A stretch of 64,000 bases of DNA, from assembly GCA_963768765.1 (NCBI GenBank), contig CAVYJK010000032.1, positions 106,318 through 170,317 of the forward strand, in the 5' to 3' direction. Shown here piece by piece: positions 4,434-60,730 of this stretch (position 1 is its first letter; every line of letters begins with the position of its first letter). This stretch comes from an uncultured delta proteobacterium. GTDB lineage: Bacteria; Desulfobacterota; Desulfobaccia; Desulfobaccales; 0-14-0-80-60-11. The notes under the pieces are model-generated. The model saw nothing but the letters and a program-made list of their open reading frames with translations, did not search any database and was not told the DNA's origin. The translations under genes were made by a program, and so were the position numbers.

Positions 4434-4459
4434 GTTAGTGAACGGGGAGGTAGTGGGGG

Positions 4460-4810
4460 ATGCCCAGCAACTTGACTCTTCGACTGACTGCCGCAGGACA
4501 TGAATTTGTCTCTAAAAACCGCAAGTTGAGCCACCCCTGGCGCCTGGGGAGAATCGTGGTAGGGGCCGTGGTCCTGGCCACCGCCGGGGTGCTGTTCACC
4601 TCCGTCTTTCTGGCCTGGGCCGATCTGCAGTACATCACTCAGAGCTACCAGATCTCTCAGGCCCAGGAGGCCCAGAAACAATACCTGGATCTGAACAACA
4701 AGTTGCGCATCGAGCTGGCCAGCCTCTCGGCCATTTCCCGTCTGGAAAAACTGGCAGCGGAATATGGCATGGGGGCCCCCCAGCCCTCCCAGGTCGTGAA
4801 ACTGCCGTGA
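4460..4810 (+). CDS. ftsL: cell division protein FtsL-like
   Basis: 116-aa protein with a single TM (IVVGAVVLATAGVLFTSVFLAW) followed by a coiled-coil region. It sits at the canonical position between rsmH and ftsI. Confidence 0.7.
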   Translation: MPSNLTLRLTAAGHEFVSKNRKLSHPWRLGRIVVGAVVLATAGVLFTSVFLAWADLQYITQSYQISQAQEAQKQYLDLNNKLRIELASLSAISRLEKLAAEYGMGAPQPSQVVKLP

Positions 4811-6855
4811 GTCCCGGCATCAACAAATGGGTGCGCTTGCGCATCGGCCTGGTGGGCCTGGGCCTGTTTCTCCTGGGCCTGTGGGTCTGCGGCCGGTTTT
4901 TTTACCTGCAAGCCATCCGGGGGCCGCAACTCCGGGAAGAGTCCACCCGGGAGTACCAGAAGTATTGCCCCGTCCTGCCGGTGCGGGGCACCATCCTGGA
5001 CTGCCGCGGCACGGAGTTGGCGGTCAGCACCCGGGTCTCCTCCGTGGTGGCCCACCCAGCCCAGATCAAGAATGCCGACCGTCTGAGCCGGGAGCTGGCT
5101 CCCATCCTGGGCTTCAAGCCCCGAGAACTGAAGGAGATGTTCACCCGGGCCCGTCCCTTTGTCTGGGTCAAACGCCACCTCACCCCGGAGCGGGAAGCCG
5201 CCTTCCTGGCCTGGCAGGCCAAGGTGGAGCAGAAGACCCGGGCCGCCGGGGAGACGGGCCGCCGGGACACAGACCCGATCTATCTCATTCCTGAGGCCAA
5301 GCGTTATTATCCCCAGCTCTCCCTGGCCGGCCAGGTGCTGGGGTTCTGTAACATCGACTGCCAGGGCCTGGAAGGGCTGGAGTTCCAGTTCGACCACGAA
5401 CTTTACGGCAAACCCAAGCAGTACTGGAAGACGATGGACGCCCGGGGCCACATCGTGGACACCGGGGAGAAGGCCTGGGACCCTGAGGTCATGGGCAACA
5501 ACCTGGTCCTGACGCTGGACCGCACCCTGCAGTACATTGCGGAGAAGGAACTGGCCCAGGGAGTGGAAAGGTTTCACGCCGCCGGTGGGATGGCCCTGGT
5601 GGTGCGGCCCCAAACCGGTGAGATCCTGGCCATGGCCCAGGTGCCGTCCCTCGACCCCAACCGCCAGGCCCAATACCCGGAAGAAACCCACCACAACCGC
5701 ATTCTGACGGACTGCCTGGAGCCCGGCTCCACTTACAAGATCTTCATCGCCGCCTCGGCCCTGGACGCCCACGTGGTGAAGCCCACGGACAAGTTACATT
5801 GCGAAAACGGCGTCTGGGTCCTGGGACCCAAGGAAGTGATTCACGACGTGCATCCTTACGGGACCCTGACGGTGCAGCAGGTGATTCAAAAATCCAGCAA
5901 CATCGGGGCCGCCAAGATTGCCACCAAAACGGGCGGACCCCGCCTGGACCGCTACCTGCGGGATTTCGGCTTTGGCCGCAAATCCGGCATCCAGTTTCCG
6001 GGAGAAACCGCGGGCATTTTGAAGAACCTCCGCCTGACCCGTTCGCTCATCGACCGGGCCACCCTGGCCTTCGGACAGGGGGTGTCCGTCACTTCGTTAC
6101 AGATGACCATGGCCCTGGCCGCCATGGGCAATGGCGGGGTCTTGATGGAGCCTCACCTGGTGAAAGCGGTGGTCAATCCTTATGGGAAAATAGTCCGGGA
6201 ATTCCAACCCCACCCCATCCGCCGGGTGCTTTCTCAGCAAACGGCCCAGCAGATGCTGGCCATCATGGAGACCGTGACTCAGCCCGGCGGCACCGCCAAG
6301 GAGGCGGCCCCCGAAGGTTTCACGGTGGCCGGCAAGACCGGCACCGCCCAGAAGCTGGTGGGCCGGACCTATTCCCACAGCAAGTTTAACGCCCTGTTCA
6401 TCGGTCTGATTCCGGCCGACAAACCGGTGCTGGCCATCTCCGTCATCCTGGACGAACCCAAGGGCGCCATCTACGGCGGCGTGGTGGCGGCCCCCATCTT
6501 CCGGGAGATCGCGGCCCAATCGATGCGGGTCCTGGGTTATTACCCCCAAAAGGAATTGGAAAAGGACAAGAACGCCCCGGTGCTGGCCGGCATACTGCCC
6601 ACTCCGGCCCTGGCCGCCCCGGCGCCCCAGCCGGTCGCCTTTACGCCGACCAAGCTGGAGATCCCCAAAGAGCCTCTGAAAGTGATGCCGAACCTGCGGG
6701 GCTATACTATTCGGCAAGTAATCAATCTCTTGCATAAGTCCGGGTTGCGCTGCCGGGTGGAAGGCAGCGGCATGGCCGTGAGTCAGGAGCCGGCGCCGGG
6801 AACCGAGCTCAGCCCCGGCACCAGCTGCCGGGTGAAATTCAAGTCCAATTCCTGA
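4807..6855 (+). CDS. ftsI: peptidoglycan D,D-transpeptidase FtsI (PBP3-like) with C-terminal PASTA domain
   Basis: Transpeptidase motifs STYK (GSTYKIF), SSN (KSSNIG) and KTG (GKTGTA). C-terminal PASTA-like MPNLRGYTIRQVINLLHKSGL. GTGA overlap with the ftsL stop. Confidence 0.9.
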   Translation: MSPGINKWVRLRIGLVGLGLFLLGLWVCGRFFYLQAIRGPQLREESTREYQKYCPVLPVRGTILDCRGTELAVSTRVSSVVAHPAQIKNADRLSRELAPILGFKPRELKEMFTRARPFVWVKRHLTPEREAAFLAWQAKVEQKTRAAGETGRRDTDPIYLIPEAKRYYPQLSLAGQVLGFCNIDCQGLEGLEFQFDHELYGKPKQYWKTMDARGHIVDTGEKAWDPEVMGNNLVLTLDRTLQYIAEKELAQGVERFHAAGGMALVVRPQTGEILAMAQVPSLDPNRQAQYPEETHHNRILTDCLEPGSTYKIFIAASALDAHVVKPTDKLHCENGVWVLGPKEVIHDVHPYGTLTVQQVIQKSSNIGAAKIATKTGGPRLDRYLRDFGFGRKSGIQFPGETAGILKNLRLTRSLIDRATLAFGQGVSVTSLQMTMALAAMGNGGVLMEPHLVKAVVNPYGKIVREFQPHPIRRVLSQQTAQQMLAIMETVTQPGGTAKEAAPEGFTVAGKTGTAQKLVGRTYSHSKFNALFIGLIPADKPVLAISVILDEPKGAIYGGVVAAPIFREIAAQSMRVLGYYPQKELEKDKNAPVLAGILPTPALAAPAPQPVAFTPTKLEIPKEPLKVMPNLRGYTIRQVINLLHKSGLRCRVEGSGMAVSQEPAPGTELSPGTSCRVKFKSNS

Positions 6856-8758: not shown

Positions 8759-8796
8759 TCTCCCCCTCCCCTGGCGGGAGGGGCTGGGGGGAGGGA
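8759..8796. repeat. solo L-type G-rich repeat in the murE-murF spacer
   Basis: CTCCCCCTCCCCTGGCGGGAGGGGCTGGGGGGAGGG closely matches 49859-49897 and resembles 15761-15797. Confidence 0.8.
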
Positions 8797-14410: not shown

Positions 14411-14504
14411 TATCCCCCCCCTTTATAAAGGGGGGATAGGGGAGATTTTCTCTAAACCCTCCAAATCCCCCTAAATCCCCCTTTAGAACAGGGGGACTTT
14501 CGAG
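14411..14504 (+). repeat. double-hairpin C/G-run element (copy 1)
   Basis: CCCCCC-tttataaa-GGGGGG (14416-14435) and TCCCCC-tttagaaca-GGGGGA (14476-14496). Collinear homolog at 21676-21768. Confidence 0.85.
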
Positions 14505-14593: not shown

Positions 14594-15688
14594 ATGGATC
14601 TCAGGGTGGTAATCGCCTCAGGCGGCACCGGGGGCCATCTCTTCCCCGGCATCGCCGTGGCCCGGGAATTCCAGGCCACGGAGGGCGCCACCGTCACCTT
14701 CCTCACCACCCCCAAGGCCGTCTCCACCCGGATCCTGGAACACCACGGGTTCCCCTGGGAAGCCATGGAGAGCCGGGCCCTGAAAGGGGAAGGGCTCTGG
14801 GCCCGGCTGCGCGCCCTGTTGAGCCTGCCGGGCGGCGTGCTCCGGGCCCGCCGGCGCCTGAAGATCCTGAACCCCCACCTGGTGCTGGGCATGGGGGGCC
14901 ACACCTCGGGGCCCGTGGGGGTGGCGGCCTGGACCCTAAGGATTCCCCTGGCCCTGCACGAGCAAAACGCCATCCTCGGGGCCACCAACCGCTATTTGGC
15001 CCGCCTGGCCGGCCGGGTGTTCGTGTCGTTCCCCGAGACCATGAGTTATCTATCTCCCGGCCTTTCGGTCTGGACCGGCAACCCCATCCGGGAGGAATTC
15101 TTTCAGCCGCGCCCGCCCCGGCCACCGGAGCCCTTCACCGTGCTGGTCACCGGCGGCAGCCAGGGGGCCCACCATTTGAACGTGGAGGTCCTGGCGGCGC
15201 TGCCAAAGCTTACGGACCTGAAGGAGAAGCTGCACTTTCTGCACCTCCCCGGGGAGGCGGATCGGGAACAGGTGGAGGCGGGCTATCGTGAGAATGGCTT
15301 TGCCGCGGAGGTGATGGCCTTCTCGCCCGAGATGCCGGAGTTGATGGCCCGGGCCCATCTGATCGTCTGCCGGGCCGGGGCCTCCACCCTGGCGGAGTTC
15401 GCCGCGGTGGGCCGCGCCGCCTTGCTCGTGCCCTACCCTTTTGCGGCCAACAACCACCAGGAGCACAACGCCCGGTTCCTCATGGAGGCCGGGGCCGCAG
15501 AGCTGATTCTAAATAAAGAATTTACCGGAGAGCTATTCGCTGGTAAGATACGGCAGTTCCTGGAGCAGCCCGAAACCCTGAAACGCATGGAGGAGGCGTC
15601 CCGCCGCCTGGCCAGGCCCCACGCCGCCCGGGACATCGTCCAGGGGTGTTTGGAGCTTATTGGGGTAAATTTAGCACAAGCACAATAG
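14594..15688 (+). CDS. murG: UDP-N-acetylglucosamine--N-acetylmuramyl-(pentapeptide) pyrophosphoryl-undecaprenol GlcNAc transferase MurG
   Basis: IASGGTGGHLFPGIAVA N-terminus, ..VTGGSQGA.., ..CRAGASTLAE... Confidence 0.9.
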   Translation: MDLRVVIASGGTGGHLFPGIAVAREFQATEGATVTFLTTPKAVSTRILEHHGFPWEAMESRALKGEGLWARLRALLSLPGGVLRARRRLKILNPHLVLGMGGHTSGPVGVAAWTLRIPLALHEQNAILGATNRYLARLAGRVFVSFPETMSYLSPGLSVWTGNPIREEFFQPRPPRPPEPFTVLVTGGSQGAHHLNVEVLAALPKLTDLKEKLHFLHLPGEADREQVEAGYRENGFAAEVMAFSPEMPELMARAHLIVCRAGASTLAEFAAVGRAALLVPYPFAANNHQEHNARFLMEAGAAELILNKEFTGELFAGKIRQFLEQPETLKRMEEASRRLARPHAARDIVQGCLELIGVNLAQAQ

Positions 15689-15760
15689 CTTATTGAGAAG
15701 TTTATAAGAGGTTAAGTTTAATTATTAATCCGAGTATCAAATAGATGGCTTCTTTTAACT

Positions 15761-16182
15761 CCCTCCCCCTTGATGGGGGAGGGTTGGGGTGGGGGTGGCG
15801 AAAAAAATTAGGGATAGAACGACCAAGATTTCAAGGGTCATAAGAAAGAGGGCAACCGACGCCGAAAATCGTCTTTGGTATCATCTGAAAGGCAAGCAAT
15901 TAGAGGGTGTAAAGTTTAGAAGACAAGAGCCCATCGGCAATTTTATTGTTGATTTCGTCGCCTTTGAAAAACGCCTTGTTATAGAAATAGACGGCGCTCA
16001 ACACGCCGAAGAAAATGAAAAAGACCAGGACATGCGGCGAGATGAGTGGCTCAATAGCCAGGGATTCAGGGTAGTAAGGTTTTGGAATAATGAAGTTCTG
16101 CAGAATCTGGAAGGGGTGCTGGAAACGATTAGAACCAACTGCTTACGCCACCCTCCCCTGACCCCTCCCATCAAGGGAGGGG
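15761..16182 (+). mobile_element. candidate TIR-bounded unit carrying the DUF559 endonuclease gene
   Basis: The left repeat is CCCTCCCCCTTGATGGGGGAGGGTTGGGGTGGGGGTG (15761-15797). Its reverse complement is CACCCCCACCCCAACCCTCCCCCATCAAGGGGGAGGG. That matches the right end CCACCCTCCCCTGACCCCTCCCATCAAGGGAGGGG (16148-16182). No transposase is present, so mobility is inferred only. Confidence 0.45.
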
Positions 16183-16190
16183 AAAAATAA
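15789..16190 (+). CDS. DUF559 (Vsr-like, PD-(D/E)xK-fold) endonuclease-domain protein
   Basis: RATDAENRLWYHLKGKQLEGVKFRRQEPIGNFIVDFVAFEKRLVIEIDGAQH..GFRVVRFWNNEV is the classic DUF559 pattern. Both ORF ends lie within the inverted repeats. Visibly AT-richer than the flanks. The start may be GTG at 15795. Confidence 0.8.
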   Translation: MGVAKKIRDRTTKISRVIRKRATDAENRLWYHLKGKQLEGVKFRRQEPIGNFIVDFVAFEKRLVIEIDGAQHAEENEKDQDMRRDEWLNSQGFRVVRFWNNEVLQNLEGVLETIRTNCLRHPPLTPPIKGGEK

Positions 16191-16269
16191 AGAGCACTAC
16201 TAAATTTTGAGTTTGGTTGCTCAAAAGTTCTTTTAATGTCAATCTTAGATAATCATGAGAGCTTTTCTT

Positions 16270-16306
16270 CCCTCCCCCTCGATGGGGGAGGGTAAGGGTG
16301 GGGGTG
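16270..16306 (+). repeat. third L-type repeat copy, immediately upstream of the EVE gene
   Basis: CCCTCCCCCTCGATGGGGGAGGGTAAGGGTGGGGGTG, in the same orientation as 15761-15797. It ends 4 nt before the ATG at 16311. Confidence 0.85.
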
Positions 16307-16310
16307 AAGG

Positions 16311-16748
16311 ATGGCCTTTTGGATTTTCAAAAGTAATCCTGATCTTTTCAAATTAGATGAACGGTTGCAAGATCCTGAACCTCTAACGACCTGGAAAGTT
16401 TCACGATACAGAGATAAGATTCATACTGGAGATATAGCTTTTATCTGGCGCACAGGTTCTAAGCGAGGAATCGTCGCTGTTATGGAAATTACGAGTAAAC
16501 CTTTTGAGATGTATGAACTAGATCATGAACAAAAATACTGGGAAATTCCCGACACTAAATTAATTTTCCGTGTTCTTGGTACCTTCAAGCATCGTAATTT
16601 TCCTTGGATTTCTTATCGGAAATTAAAACAAATTCCAGAACTTCAGAATTTATCTACATTCCATGGTTTTCAGAAAAACACCACCTTTCCCGTTACAGAG
16701 CCAGAAGGCATGATATTGATGAAACTTATCGAATCGACATCAACATAA
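16311..16748 (+). CDS. EVE (PUA-like) domain protein
   Basis: MAFWIFKSNPDLFKLDE..W.VSRYRDKIHTGDIAFIWRTGSKRGIVAVMEITS..FPVTEPEGMILMKLI fits the EVE/PUA-like pattern. One of the most AT-rich stretches of the dcw region. Confidence 0.65.
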   Translation: MAFWIFKSNPDLFKLDERLQDPEPLTTWKVSRYRDKIHTGDIAFIWRTGSKRGIVAVMEITSKPFEMYELDHEQKYWEIPDTKLIFRVLGTFKHRNFPWISYRKLKQIPELQNLSTFHGFQKNTTFPVTEPEGMILMKLIESTST

Positions 16749-16770
16749 TAATTTTAAATATTTTAAAGAA

Positions 16771-18186
16771 ATGATGTTTTACTCAAAATTAAAATTCACC
16801 TACCACTTCATCGGCGTCGGGGGCATCGGCATGAGCGGCCTGGCGGAGCTCCTGGTGCGCCAGGGGCACCGGGTCAGCGGCTCGGACCTGGCGGCCAACC
16901 CTCTGACCCGGCGCCTGGAAGAGCTGGGGGTCCGGTTTTATGAAGGCCACCGCCCGGAGCACCTGGGGGACGCCCGCATCGTGGTCCACTCCACCGCGGT
17001 CAAGGAAGGCAACCCCGAGCTGGCCGCGGCCCGGGCCCGGGGCCTCACGGTGCTGCGCCGGGGCCAGCTGCTGGCCCACCTCATGCGCGGCCACTTCCAG
17101 ATCGCCGTCACCGGGGCCCACGGCAAGACCTCCACCACCGCCATGACCGCGGCCATCCTGCGGGCCGGGAATCTCGACCCCACCGTGGTGGTGGGGGCCC
17201 AGTGGGAGAGCCTGGGTTCCAACGCGGTCCTGGGCCGGGGCGCCTACTTCGTGGCCGAAGCCGACGAGAGCGACGCCTCCTTTGCCTATATCACGCCACA
17301 AATTACCGTAATCACCAACCTGGACCGGGAGCACCTGGACTTTTACCGGGACCTGGACCACATTAAGGAAACTTTTGCCAAGTACCTGTGGGACCTGCCT
17401 CAAGGGGCCCGGATAGTGGCCTGGGGCGACGACCCGCACCTGGCCCCGCTGCTTAAGAGCCAGCCCCATGAGGTGTTGACTTACAGCTTGCGGGCTGAGG
17501 CCGCGGACTTTTGGGCCACAGACCTGGAATCCCGGGGCTTCGGGTCCCGGTTCCGCCTGTTCCACCGCGGGCGGGAGCTGGGCGCTCTCGCCCTGCCCCT
17601 GGCCGGGTGCCACTACGTGCTCAACGCCATGGCCGCCTGTGCGGTGGCGCACATTTTGGGAGTGGAACTCCCGGCCTGGCGGACTGGGCTGGCCGGACTG
17701 GGACAGATACACCGCCGCTGCCAGGTGAAGGGCGAAGCCGGGGGGGTCCTGGTGCTGGACGACTACGGCCACCACCCCACGGAAATCGCCACCACCCTGG
17801 CCTCTCTGGCCCAGGCCTTTCCGGAGCGCCGCCTGGTGGTGGCCTTTCAGCCCCACCGCTATAGCCGCACCCGGGCTCTGCTGCCGGAGTTCTTCCCGGT
17901 CTTCCACCGGGCCTCCCTGGTGTTCGTCACCGAAATCTACAGCGCTGGGGAGGCGCCCCTGGACGGGTTGAGCGGGCGGGCGGTCTATGAAGGCATCCGC
18001 CAGAGCGGGCATGGGGCCGTTTATTTCGTTGAAGATAAGACGGCCGTGGCCGATAGTATCTTAAATCACCTCAACGCCGGGGACCTGGTCCTGACCCTGG
18101 GGGCGGGAGACATCTGGAAAACCGGGGAAGAGCTGCTGGCCCGCCTGAACCAGGAGCGGGCCGCTCCCGGGGTGGCTGAGCTATGA
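16771..18186 (+). CDS. murC: UDP-N-acetylmuramate--L-alanine ligase MurC
   Basis: HFIGVGGIGMSGLAELL, VTGAHGKTSTTAM P-loop, DDYGHHPTEI. Confidence 0.9.
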   Translation: MMFYSKLKFTYHFIGVGGIGMSGLAELLVRQGHRVSGSDLAANPLTRRLEELGVRFYEGHRPEHLGDARIVVHSTAVKEGNPELAAARARGLTVLRRGQLLAHLMRGHFQIAVTGAHGKTSTTAMTAAILRAGNLDPTVVVGAQWESLGSNAVLGRGAYFVAEADESDASFAYITPQITVITNLDREHLDFYRDLDHIKETFAKYLWDLPQGARIVAWGDDPHLAPLLKSQPHEVLTYSLRAEAADFWATDLESRGFGSRFRLFHRGRELGALALPLAGCHYVLNAMAACAVAHILGVELPAWRTGLAGLGQIHRRCQVKGEAGGVLVLDDYGHHPTEIATTLASLAQAFPERRLVVAFQPHRYSRTRALLPEFFPVFHRASLVFVTEIYSAGEAPLDGLSGRAVYEGIRQSGHGAVYFVEDKTAVADSILNHLNAGDLVLTLGAGDIWKTGEELLARLNQERAAPGVAEL

Positions 18187-21675: not shown

Positions 21676-21768
21676 TTACCCCCCTTTTCTAAAGGGGGGC
21701 AAGGGGGGATTAAAAATCCCATTAAAATCCCCCTAAATCCCCCTTTAACAAAGGGGGACTTTAAATTG
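21676..21768 (+). repeat. double-hairpin C/G-run element (copy 2)
   Basis: CCCCCC-ttttctaaa-GGGGGG and TCCCCC-tttaacaaa-GGGGGA. It shares ..AAATCCCCCTAAATCCCCCTTTA..GGGGGACTTT with 14411-14504. Confidence 0.85.
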
Positions 21769-32493: not shown

Positions 32494-32500
32494 TGACCGT

Positions 32501-32635
32501 TTGAGGGGAGGGCCGGGGGACGCGTGTCCCCCGCCCTCCCCTCAAGCTCCCCTCCCACCCCCCTACATGGGGTTTGGGGGAGAGGGTTTGGGAGAGGGGG
32601 CAGGGGCCGCCTGCCCCTGGCCCTCTCTCCCAAAA
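32501..32635. repeat. two adjacent B-type G-rich hairpins
   Basis: TTGAGGGGAGGGCCGGGGGACgcgTGTCCCCCGCCCTCCCCTCAA and GGGAGAGGGGGCAGGGGCcgCCTGCCCCTGGCCCTCTCTCCCAAAA. Confidence 0.85.
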
Positions 32636-32671
32636 TCTTTCTGACAACAACCTCAAATCGCGTGCGGATTT

Positions 32672-34202: not shown

Positions 34203-34220
34203 TATTCGTAGTAAATGTAT

Positions 34221-34359
34221 GGTGGGCACCGCTCACCATAAAACACCGACAGAATGAGGTGGGCCATGGCCCACCCTACACAACTACACAACTTAAGGGG
34301 TTGGGGGAGGGTTTCAGGGAGGATTGTAAGTGGGCCGTCGGCCCCTAGCCCCCTCCCTG
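34221..34359. repeat. hairpins GGTGGGCACCGCTCACC and GGTGGGCCATGGCCCACC plus a C-type repeat (34293-34359)
   Basis: The C-type copy AAGGGGTTGGGGGAGGGTTTCAGGGAGGATTGTAAGTGGGCCGTCGGCCCCTAGCCCCCTCCCTGA is nearly collinear with 45307-45373. Confidence 0.85.
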
Positions 34360-34385
34360 AGAAGGCATTTCCTGAGAGGTTTACC

Positions 34386-45187: not shown

Positions 45188-45373
45188 GGGGGGAGGGCCA
45201 GGGAGCGAGGCTCCCTGCCCTCCCCCCAAGCCCCCCACCCAACCCGCATAAGGGCCGGGGAAGGCGGGGCCTGCTACCCCGACTTCCCCGGTCTATAAAT
45301 ATCCCATAAGGGGTTGGGGGAGAGCTTCAGGGTGGATTGTAAGCGGGCCGTGGACCCCCTAGCCCCCTCCCTG
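45188..45373. repeat. B-type hairpin + inverted D-type arm + C-type repeat
   Basis: GGGGGGAGGGCCAGGGAGCgagGCTCCCTGCCCTCCCCCC (45188-45227). CCCAACCCGCATAAGGG.. is the inverse of 24463-79. The C-type copy is at 45307-45373. Confidence 0.85.
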
Positions 45374-45389
45374 AACTATCTTCCAAACC

Positions 45390-49423: not shown

Positions 49424-49452
49424 TGCTCACCCTTTAACTTCGGTTTATTCTT

Positions 49453-49782
49453 TTATTTCTTACCCCAATATTCATGAACTTTTCTTAATTCGCTTATGAA
49501 AAAATTCCAATCGTCATTTCCCGAATATAAATCTAGTTCTCGGGCTAATGTAAAGAAACCTTTCCCTGGAATGTTGTTCTCTTTGTGAATGACTACTGCA
49601 GAAAGCATTGGACGACCATGTTCATGCTCATATGATGAAATCTCACCAAGAATCTCAGAGATCTTGTTCCTATCAGCAGGACTATCCATATCTAAATTAG
49701 CCAAGGGAGCAATTTCACTATAATAAATACATTTTTGCTCCTTAGCTATTGATTTAAGTTTATCGTAAATTACATGATGCAT
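49453..49782 (-). CDS. AT-rich orphan protein (109 aa), possible MGMT/ATL-like winged-helix fold
   Basis: MHHVIYDKLKSIAKEQKCIYYSEIAPLANLD..ISEILGEISSYEHEHGRPMLSAVVIHKENNIPGKGFF. The resemblance to wHTH DNA-binding domains is subjective. The most AT-rich ORF in this part of the window. Confidence 0.45.
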   Translation of the reverse strand: MHHVIYDKLKSIAKEQKCIYYSEIAPLANLDMDSPADRNKISEILGEISSYEHEHGRPMLSAVVIHKENNIPGKGFFTLARELDLYSGNDDWNFFISELRKVHEYWGKK

Positions 49783-49858
49783 TTATAAGATCCCCGTTGT
49801 TGTTGAGCCTCTGAAATCTCTGCAAAATAACCTTCTGACAGAAAAGGGTCTTTATTTC

Positions 49859-49960
49859 TTCCCCCTCCCCTGGTGGGAGGGGGTTAGGGGGAGGGGGATA
49901 ACCCACTGACATTGCAAGAATAATCACCCCCACCCTGACCCTCCCCCATCAAGGGGGAGG
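49859..49960. mobile_element. gene-less L+R inverted-repeat pair (MITE-like derivative of the DUF559-flanking repeats)
   Basis: CCCCCTCCCCTGGTGGGAGGGGGTTAGGGGGAGGGGGAT (49859-97), a 25-nt spacer, then CACCCCCACCCTGACCCTCCCCCATCAAGGGGGAGGGC (49923-60). The latter is nearly identical to the reverse complement of 15761-15797. Confidence 0.5.
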
Positions 49961-50013
49961 GCATAAAAAGAAGTTCCTTATTAGGATTTCTCACATTTTA
50001 CAGAGGTCTCTCT

Positions 50014-60538: not shown

Positions 60539-60599
60539 TAACCGGCGAAAAAGTCAAGACCAACCTTGGGCCCCGCATGTTTTTGCGAATCGGAGGCCT

Positions 60600-60730
60600 G
60601 GTGGGCTGTGCCCACCCTAGGTCGTGCGGCCTCTGTCCTCTCAGTAGTGTATTCCATCGATGAGATGGTTAGGATCTCCCGTAGGGGCGGGGTCTCTCCG
60701 CCTTATAGGGGCGAGTAAACCTCGCCCCTA
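60600..60730. repeat. palindromic hairpin cluster
   Basis: GGTGGGCTGTGCCCACC (60600-16). GTAGGGGCGGGGTCTCTCCGCC..TAGGGGCGAGtaaacCTCGCCCCTAC (60681-60730). Confidence 0.8.

Follow-up and report, generated by a model that had tools for sequence, protein, structure and literature searches.

Three-armed repeats of the BoxC/PIT/TM_ECO class have been known in Escherichia coli since the 1990s. DUF559 proteins make up a large family to which YcjD of E. coli belongs and for which a structure has been solved (3hrl); to our knowledge, no role is known for it. Here we describe a DUF559 gene that lies between inverted copies of such a repeat in a 64,000-nucleotide (nt) stretch of DNA from an uncultured delta proteobacterium (contig CAVYJK010000032.1, positions 106,318 to 170,317; this whole stretch is hereafter the window). 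Comparison of this locus with its counterparts in other bacteria leads us to read gene and repeats as one selfish nuclease-plus-repeat unit, similar in build to the RAYT/REPIN systems and made with an unrelated PD-(D/E)XK enzyme. We give this reading a probability of roughly 0.6 and rank its mechanistic details lower.

The repeat class was named BoxC, then PIT elements, and then TM_ECO (Holder et al. 2015, PMC4666352, which cites Bachellier et al. and Hoyne and Maher for the earlier work). Its TM_ECO consensus is CCCTCNCCC N3-6 GGGNGAGGG N3 GGGNGAGGG. E. coli MG1655 carries 23 copies, among them five inverted pairs that combine two subtypes. Across 262 proteobacterial genomes, 3610 copies of TM motifs were counted, and the motifs are tied to variable loci (PMC4666352). 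A TM_ECO triple helix was obtained in vitro but not observed in vivo, and the E. coli genome is unstable at TM loci (PMC4666352). PIT/TM elements displayed no promoter or terminator activity and no tie to the function of neighboring genes (PMC4666352, citing Hoyne and Maher). No function, origin, or mobilizing activity was found for the class; mobility functions were never found near the motifs, and the text of that study mentions neither an endonuclease nor DUF559 nor ycjD (PMC4666352). Our own search of openly accessible literature found no published link of DUF559 to these or any other repeats. While the repeat class and the protein family are both known, their pairing and its breadth across bacteria appear to be new.

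The DUF559 unit in the window

The window has a GC content of 62%. The space between murG (14594-15688) and murC (16771-18186), two members of the dcw cluster, is occupied by a low-GC island that codes for a 133-amino acid (aa) DUF559 open reading frame (ORF) and a 145-aa EVE ORF. The features of this island are as follows.

15689..16770, no strand: low-GC island, ~30-49% GC, 1.08 kb, occupying the murG|murC intergenic space
15760..15803, plus strand: left terminal repeat, an L-type triad (direct reading, alignment, triad search, hairpin energy)
15789..16190, plus strand: DUF559 / Vsr-like PD-(D/E)XK endonuclease ORF, 133 aa (Pfam PF04480, PDB 3hrl match)
16143..16183, minus strand: right terminal repeat, an R-type triad (direct reading, alignment, triad search, hairpin energy)
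16270..16306, plus strand: third copy of the repeat, a solo L-type triad with 92% identity to the left copy
16311..16748, plus strand: EVE-domain ORF, 145 aa (Pfam PF01878, E 3.4e-14), with no enclosing repeat pair

Segment 15760-16183 is a compact unit of ~425 bp in which the DUF559 gene is enclosed by an L-type copy of the repeat on the left and an R-type copy on the right. An earlier note on this DNA had described the ORF as bracketed by inverted repeats of ~35 nt (15761-15797 and 16148-16182) that are imperfect reverse complements of each other and overlap both ORF ends. Direct reading bears out each of these points, with the inverted repeat being slightly longer than claimed (41-44 nt, imperfect, 15760-15803 versus 16143-16183; local alignment z = 12.4 against shuffles). 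The left repeat (15761-15797) reads CCCTCCCCC-TTGAT-GGGGGAGGG-TTG-GGGTGGGGG-TG. It is composed of a C-arm (15761-15769), a loop (15770-15774), a first G-arm (15775-15783), a spacer (15784-15786), and a second, mirrored G-arm (15787-15795), with the third arm ending at 15795 and the inner extension running to GTGGCGAAA. On the minus strand, the right repeat (16151-16182) reads CCCCTCCC-TTGAT-GGGAGGGG-TCA-GGGGAGGG, comprising the C-arm (16175-16182), loop (16170-16174), first G-arm (16162-16169), spacer (16159-16161), and mirrored second G-arm (16151-16158), with GTGGCGTAA as its inner extension.

The overlap with the gene is intimate at both ends. The GTG start codon of the DUF559 ORF (15789) falls within the second G-arm of the left repeat, which carries a GGAGG Shine-Dalgarno-like site 6 nt 5' of it, while the right repeat encodes the last 13 codons (CLRHPPLTPPIKGGE). 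The left repeat may therefore double as a ribosome-binding site, which a hairpin could mask.

The protein itself is a clear member of its family. It matched PF04480 along positions 2-107 of the 109-position profile with an E value of 6.6e-41 and a score of 139 bits (cut-off, 20.6), and its residues D55, E66, D68, and H72 fall in columns that are invariant across 18 aligned sequences. Among solved structures the nearest is PDB 3hrl, an uncharacterized protein from Neisseria gonorrhoeae (E 4e-26), and the family profile gave a marginal match (E 0.015) to 3r3p, the Vsr-like homing endonuclease I-Bth0305I. Vsr, DUF559, and I-Bth0305I have been grouped in one PD-(D/E)XK clade (PMC3424549). The closest named homologues come from metagenome-assembled genomes of Thermodesulfobacteriota, and in several databases homologues are labeled 'very-short-patch-repair endonuclease'. 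Pfam matches of the protein were limited to PF04480 and PF18741, with none to the Vsr family itself. No cytosine methyltransferase is encoded by the immediate neighbors (murG, EVE, and murC), the only ones examined. The same Pfam profile scan recognized no transposase (Y1, DDE, or serine) in the unit and the window contains no RAYT gene, in line with the earlier statement that a transposase is absent.

The third copy was likewise located correctly beforehand: it is a direct copy of the left repeat, ends 4 nt before the EVE ATG (16311), and together with the right repeat makes a divergent pair. Its presence does not bring EVE into the unit. The other DUF559 loci retrieved yielded no EVE homologue, and EVE was rejected on this basis as a functional or conserved partner.

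Repeat design and recurrence across bacteria

In each repeat, a pyrimidine arm is followed by its purine complement and, 2-3 nt further on, by a second purine arm that mirrors the first. As single-stranded DNA the hairpins have predicted energies of -9.9 to -12.3 kcal/mol with z ~ -3, values that refer to the Watson-Crick hairpin only (left repeat, -11.7 kcal/mol, z -3.0; right repeat, -9.9 kcal/mol, z -3.1). To distinguish a mirrored third arm from a direct copy, hairpins with asymmetric arms were compared in 82 sequences (1.22 Mb). The third arm mirrored the second perfectly in 134 cases and repeated it perfectly in direct orientation in 18, and the mirror was the better fit in 133 cases versus 4 for the direct copy. 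Of 1652 third-arm bases facing a G, 1619 were themselves G; those facing an A were A (237), T (113), or C (2). These choices correspond to the triplet rules of a putative purine-motif intramolecular triple helix, and the opposite strand of the repeat has the corresponding pyrimidine-motif design.

Other readings of the repeat were considered. A direct-repeat reading failed, as the mirror rule fits position by position instead. The earlier description, an internal palindrome plus a run of G-tracts, holds for the palindrome; the G-tracts are a mirror copy of the purine arm rather than mere runs. A G-quadruplex fold may be open to a 'hairpin plus G-tracts' motif, but the mirror rule and the use of A or T opposite A are what one expects of a triplex design. 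A consensus scan for a terminator or promoter at the repeats gave nothing there, and this reading was rejected on the empty scan together with the negative published tests of PIT elements.

This architecture places the repeats in the BoxC/PIT/TM_ECO class. In both, a C-rich arm is followed, after a loop of 3-6, by its G-rich complement and then, across a loop of ~3, by the mirror image of that G-rich arm; both are also intergenic, present many times in a genome, arranged in inverted pairs that combine two subtypes, and found at hypervariable loci. Arms one and two of the left copy agree with CCCTCNCCC / GGGNGAGGG. The third arm (GGGTGGGGG on the left, GGGGAGGG on the right) misses the exact TM_ECO consensus, and the window repeat is therefore a sequence variant of the class. 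Repeats of the window type differ from those described in that they bracket a nuclease gene and occur far beyond Proteobacteria. The earlier note had allowed that its repeats might be ordinary REP-like (repetitive extragenic palindromic) elements with no preferential association with DUF559 genes. REP-like they are, as members of this class, yet they are strongly associated with DUF559.

This association is also visible in protein tails. The peptide HPPLTPPIKGG, encoded by the right repeat, forms the C-terminus of 114 of the 120 top-ranking homologues and persists where domain identity has dropped to 57%. N-extended homologues start with MGEGWGGG or PLDGGGLGWGW, which correspond to the left repeat in two frames. 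Since these extensions are translations of the left repeat in other frames, what is conserved is the DNA. Stop codons fall before, within, or after the tail-encoding repeat DNA. A conserved C-terminal protein motif was rejected, as the same DNA is present upstream in other frames and in non-coding copies. For annotation, this means that C-terminal 'PPLTPPIKGGE' / 'PSP..GEG' tails and N-terminal 'MGEGWGGG' extensions are translated repeat DNA and not protein motifs.

Since the homologue list had been prefiltered on shared 5-residue words and may favor tail-bearing proteins, a second scan was performed with patterns from the catalytic domain only, using one genome per species. It returned 80 loci, in most of which inverted three-arm repeats flank DUF559. 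These belong to Planctomycetota, Nitrospirota, Chloroflexota, Thermodesulfobacteriota, Alpha-, Beta-, and Gammaproteobacteria, Elusimicrobiota, Atribacterota, Patescibacteria, and others. Altogether, the repeat-gene-repeat unit was present in at least 38 of ~80 independent loci. By strict criteria applied to 87 DUF559 matches, a triad was found on both sides of 43, on one side of 26, and on neither side of 18.

The contents of convergent triad pairs were all-or-nothing. Eighteen pairs had gaps of 10-72 nt and were empty, 38 had gaps of 315-456 nt and every one held a single DUF559 gene, and no pair fell between these sizes. A table of what lies between left and right repeats, as the earlier note had proposed, accordingly contains two kinds of entry: nothing, or exactly one DUF559 gene. 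Repeat sequence varies among loci and agrees between the two ends of one locus, with a left-right identity of 0.79 within a locus versus 0.67 between loci (reached in 0 of 2000 permutations). Dispersed triads resembled the unit ends of their own locus in 27 of 33 cases, and paralogues that share a locus bear different repeat types (L052, L018, and L013; such labels denote individual genomic loci retrieved for comparison).

Triads were also enriched where the gene is present. Loci selected for DUF559 contained 214 triads in 1.22 Mb; control loci selected for MurC (530 kb) contained 1 strict triad and no DUF559. Within the 64-kb window, 10 strict triads were found, compared to 0 in 20 shuffles, and three sites matched a 23-nt core with at most 3 mismatches (0.01 expected). 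All 10 are intergenic except the two end copies of the unit, which overlap the ends of the DUF559 ORF.

These data bear directly on coincidence, in which G/C-rich palindromes are simply abundant and a small foreign gene landed between two of them. Several other G/C-rich repeat families do exist in the window, and the murG|murC slot of relatives also gathers RAYT/REP elements. Chance insertion is nonetheless hard to reconcile with a layout shared by dozens of unrelated genomes, in which ends match and gaps are all-or-nothing, or with ORF ends that are built from the repeats, and we regard it as scarcely credible.

Occupancy, copies, and movement

The same murG|murC junction was compared among six related lineages, whose MurC identities are 71-79% apart from one pair at 87%. 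Occupancy differed at this one site. The L093 junction is ~45 bp with no repeat, providing the kind of empty site that the earlier note had suggested looking for. L091 holds a solo right-type copy that retains the inner extension TTACGCCAC; L092 holds a solo right-type copy and a RAYT-like Y1 transposase with flanking GTAG-REPs; L095 has the RAYT-like Y1 transposase with flanking GTAG-REPs, and L094 has GTAG-REPs only. In L001-L010 and the window, the DUF559 unit is present, followed by an RQC/HRDC gene (L001-L010) or EVE (window). The solo right-type copies in L091 and L092 are remnants. Between the window and L001 (~75% MurC identity), intergenic nucleotide homology is restricted to 15760-16194 (82%), and the unit is under purifying selection in both lineages.

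The original suggestion had been that DUF559 behaves as the cargo of a unit bounded by terminal inverted repeats, possibly mobilized by its own nuclease. Recurrence, the contents of repeat pairs, insertion polymorphism, and homology confined to 15760-16194 all uphold the unit. DUF559 looks like its resident enzyme and not like a passive passenger.

Relatives also revealed a second type of occupant. The RAYT-like ORF lies at 3300-3745 in L092, where it matched PF01797 at 23.5 bits, and at ~3090-3590 in L095, in each case flanked by inverted GTAG-tagged REPs (GTAGGGCGGGCACTGCCCGCC). L001 retains a remnant of the 3' end of the RAYT-like gene at 4447-4540. As this gene occupies the same murG|murC slot of relatives, two nuclease-repeat systems share one intergenic hot spot. 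In L001, the slot held by EVE in the window contains a stand-alone RQC+HRDC gene (4585-5202, 205 aa) bracketed by an inverted GTAG-REP pair (4515-4537 and 5205-5235).

The position of the unit invites an explanation by host function, in which the repeats would be structural or regulatory (mRNA ends, ribosome-binding sites, or replication pause sites) and DUF559 a housekeeping, structure-specific repair nuclease that clears hairpin or triplex obstacles, with the repeats serving in autoregulation. The unit does sit inside the dcw operon in the same orientation, a GGAGG contributed by its left repeat precedes the start codon by 6 nt, and synteny is accompanied by purifying selection in two lineages. 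A guardian enzyme is also conceivable given the instability of TM loci in E. coli. However, PIT/TM elements lack promoter and terminator activity and any link to neighbor function (PMC4666352), and our consensus scan found no terminator at the repeats. Moreover, autoregulation does not predict matched ends, repeat-bounded second copies, deletion doublets, or patchy presence in close relatives. We consider a host function of this kind improbable.

Additional copies within single genomes also bear on mobility. Two copies on different contigs of one Dehalococcoidia genome (L033 and L057) are 94% identical, with homology starting at the first base of the C-arm. In L017, gene-less doublets equal the neighboring element minus 272 bp, keep the first 52 nt and last ~25 nt of the ORF, and have been tandemly amplified. 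A deletion origin for all empty doublets was considered and rejected, being supported for L017 alone; no ORF remnant was detectable in short-spacer doublets, that of the window included. L039 contains a tandem duplication (5003-5341 and 5592-5924) of the whole DUF559 unit with ~150 bp of downstream DNA (98% over 466 bp). Tandem arrays of gene-less doublets directly beside DUF559 genes were observed in L040 (10481-11318), L017 (9460-9890), and L021 (10469-10734), with periods of ~145, ~185, and ~170 bp, respectively, reminiscent of clusters of bacterial interspersed mosaic elements (BIMEs).

The outer flanks of 38 units read a(c/t)t-CCC, with a symmetric a-Y-Y preference beside the C-arm only. 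The target-site duplications that the earlier note had proposed to look for were not found, as no direct repeat flanks any of the 38. Plasmids and phages were rejected as the usual vehicle, given 46 of 72,556 plasmid records and ~10 close matches in 2.9 million viral contigs. The 46 plasmid records with the unit are mostly chromids or mislabeled chromosomes.

Outside the island, the window contains four further triad sites.

8763..8795, plus strand: solo R-like triad between murE and murF (triad search)
14416..14496, no strand: probable variant doublet between ftsW and murG, with A/T-extended arms of the CCCCCCTT / AAGGGGGG type
21679..21758, no strand: variant doublet, A/T-extended, CCCCCCTTT-TCT-AAAGGGGGG-CAA-GGGGGGATT plus inverted partner, 14-nt spacer
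49861..49961, no strand: gene-less inverted doublet, R-like triad 49861-49895 (plus) and L-type triad 49927-49961 (minus)

In the doublet at 49861-49961 the arm tails face inward across a 31-nt spacer, which is the geometry of the DUF559 unit minus the gene. It lies in a second low-GC patch (49430-50010) between sucD and a membrane-protein gene, beside a 109-aa ORF (49453-49782, minus strand) that has no Pfam match; small foreign-looking genes thus adjoin triads at two window sites. The triads at 8763, 14416-14496, 15760-16306, and 21679-21758 occupy four intergenic spaces of the dcw (murE-ftsZ) cluster, which is normally one long operon. Three other kinds of repeat were seen in the window. 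GTAG-REP-like palindromes lie at 34216-34282 and 60596-60623 (e.g. the inverted pair TGGTGGGCACCGCTCACCA ... GGTGGGCCATGGCCCACCCTACA). A ~68-nt family, TAAGGGGTTGGGGGAG..GGGCCGT..CCCCTAGCCCCCTCCCTGA, has two intergenic copies (34293-34360 and 45306-45375, ~85% identical). A cluster of other G/C-rich palindromes (GGGGAGGGCCGGGGGACGCGTGTCCCCCGCCCTCCCC and others), different from the triads, lies at 32500-32640.

Gene-less doublets are central to another explanation, a homing-type selfish gene. Here repeats and doublets would spread by other means, and DUF559 would cut the doublet spacer and be copied in by double-strand-break repair, with the repeats acting as homology arms. The Vsr/DUF559 clade includes a genuine homing endonuclease (3r3p), the gene-less doublets share the L-type/R-type asymmetry of the filled unit, the ORF exactly fills the space between the arms, and neither a target-site duplication nor a transposase was found. 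Against this, the spacer of the empty doublet in the window is unlike the inner ends of the filled unit, for which reason that doublet was rejected as an uninterrupted target of the window unit. The L017 doublets come from a filled element and not vice versa. Loci with DUF559 have a ~30-fold higher triad density, also at a distance from the gene, as if the repeats depended on the gene, and the model leaves the arrival of doublets at new sites unexplained. Homing into pre-existing doublets is therefore unlikely in our estimation, albeit the most serious of the competing explanations.

Escherichia coli, proposed mechanism, and known systems

Pairing of the gene with TM repeats can also be followed in E. 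coli. The DUF559-annotated gene ycjD ends within a right-oriented TM, which is intact in strain M7424 (tail ...LSPSPQPSP, then stop); K-12 has lost 12 nt of it. Comparison of M7424 (L217, 740-800) with MG1655 (L171) identified a reported 12-nt 'insertion' allele as the intact-TM form. The same comparison revealed, downstream, a degraded second copy of the ycjD 3' end with its own repeat remnant. TM_ECO no. 9 (Table 1 of Holder et al.) is located ~170 bp downstream of ycjD; by rough arithmetic, the chance of one of 18 TM loci landing within ~170 bp of the gene is ~0.003.

The distribution of ycjD provided a further comparison. The gene is found in phylogroups A, B1, and C, with eefRABCD in its place elsewhere (PMC12817139). 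Lineages ST69 and ST182 are reported to carry ycjD on a D or E background. A sequence covering at least 80% of the ycjD query was present in 3377 of 5426 complete genomes. TM_ECO counts were 18-30 in A/B1/C (except UMNK88, 13), 10-11 in E, 13 in D, 6-7 in F, and 1-2 in B2, with strains placed in what we take to be their phylogroups. In an evenly spaced sample of genomes, ycjD-positive records had 17-32 matching places versus 2-20 in ycjD-negative records. These counts agree with repeats that depend on ycjD, and are confounded by phylogeny.

The sequences show the architecture and its spread over phyla, the matched ends, the all-or-nothing pairs, the polymorphism, the second copy in one genome, and one set of deletion doublets. 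That the nuclease acts on its repeats, in which fold it reads them, and by what route copies reach new sites is what we infer from these data. The nuclease would recognize its own terminal repeats, as hairpin, three-stranded fold, or duplex DNA, and would cut beside them. Host recombination and repair would then mend the breaks with other repeat copies as partners, either copying or deleting the segment between a repeat pair. Such copying and deletion would keep the gene between repeats and could yield gene-less doublets, solo copies, arrays, and variable intergenic sites and neighbors. A cut followed by host recombination suits the system because the enzyme is purely hydrolytic and target duplications are absent.

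Several observations weigh against a selfish nuclease-plus-repeat unit. A hydrolytic PD-(D/E)XK nuclease is by itself incapable of strand transfer, the 38 units lack the target-site duplications expected of a transposon, and cleavage or movement by the unit is argued here from comparison of sequences. The unit is syntenic in the window and L001 at ~75% MurC identity, which indicates long vertical inheritance rather than frequent jumping. ORF remnants were seen in the L017 doublets only. In the strict count, 18 of the 87 DUF559 matches had no triad nearby and 26 had one on a single side, and the homologue list carries the possible bias toward tail-bearing proteins described above. In E. coli K-12, ycjD has no left repeat; the difference in TM counts follows phylogroup and is therefore essentially one evolutionary contrast; and TM loci are mostly fixed in position across strains (PMC4666352). 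Lastly, the 3hrl gene of N. gonorrhoeae is flanked by direct rather than inverted repeats. These span ~120 bp on either side of the gene (L216, 2311-2440 and 2920-3040), and each holds a degenerate triad, CCCTCTCCC-TGT-GGGAAAGAG-TTA-GAGAGAGGG.

If the nuclease does act on the repeats, two widespread orphans, the TM repeats and DUF559, would explain each other. We tentatively extend this idea, with somewhat less than even confidence: DUF559 proteins could be the long-missing cognate enzymes of BoxC/PIT/TM_ECO repeats and constitute a second, independently evolved nuclease-repeat class beside RAYT/REPIN, present in most bacterial phyla. The three-stranded or hairpin fold could be its recognition element, and the ~425 bp unit could rank among the smallest self-contained mobile units. 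Such a system would share the RAYT/REPIN build, use different chemistry, and possibly offer a natural triple-helix recognition element.

The unit can be compared with several other described systems. Vsr repair endonucleases belong to the same fold family as DUF559, but vsr genes are not known for flanking repeats and the unit has no Vsr Pfam match. Transposons with terminal inverted repeats resemble it in their ends and differ by target-site duplications and a recognized transposase, neither of which the unit has. Like IS200/IS605 elements, the unit is very small, has ends of structured (hairpin) DNA, and lacks a target-site duplication; like miniature inverted-repeat transposable elements (MITEs), it has gene-less derivatives with the same ends (shown for L017 only). 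It differs in having true inverted repeats as ends and no Y1, DDE, or serine transposase. I-Bth0305I (3r3p), from the same Vsr/DUF559 clade, is the product of a selfish nuclease gene whose spread relies on host repair. That gene sits in a phage-borne group I intron, and the target of the enzyme is a gene present in single copy, whereas the unit has no intron and its candidate target is a dispersed repeat.

The RAYT/REPIN systems differ from the unit in their parts. The enzyme of the unit is a PD-(D/E)XK hydrolase (PF04480) rather than an HUH Y1 transposase (PF01797), with no covalent-intermediate chemistry for strand transfer. Its repeat is a three-arm mirror motif without the GTAG/CGTC tag of REPs, and GTAG-REPs form a separate family in these same genomes. 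In organization, however, the two are alike: a low-copy nuclease gene lies within inverted copies of a repeat family dispersed in the same genome, with short-spacer inverted doublets, clusters, paralogue-specific repeat types, and vertical persistence.

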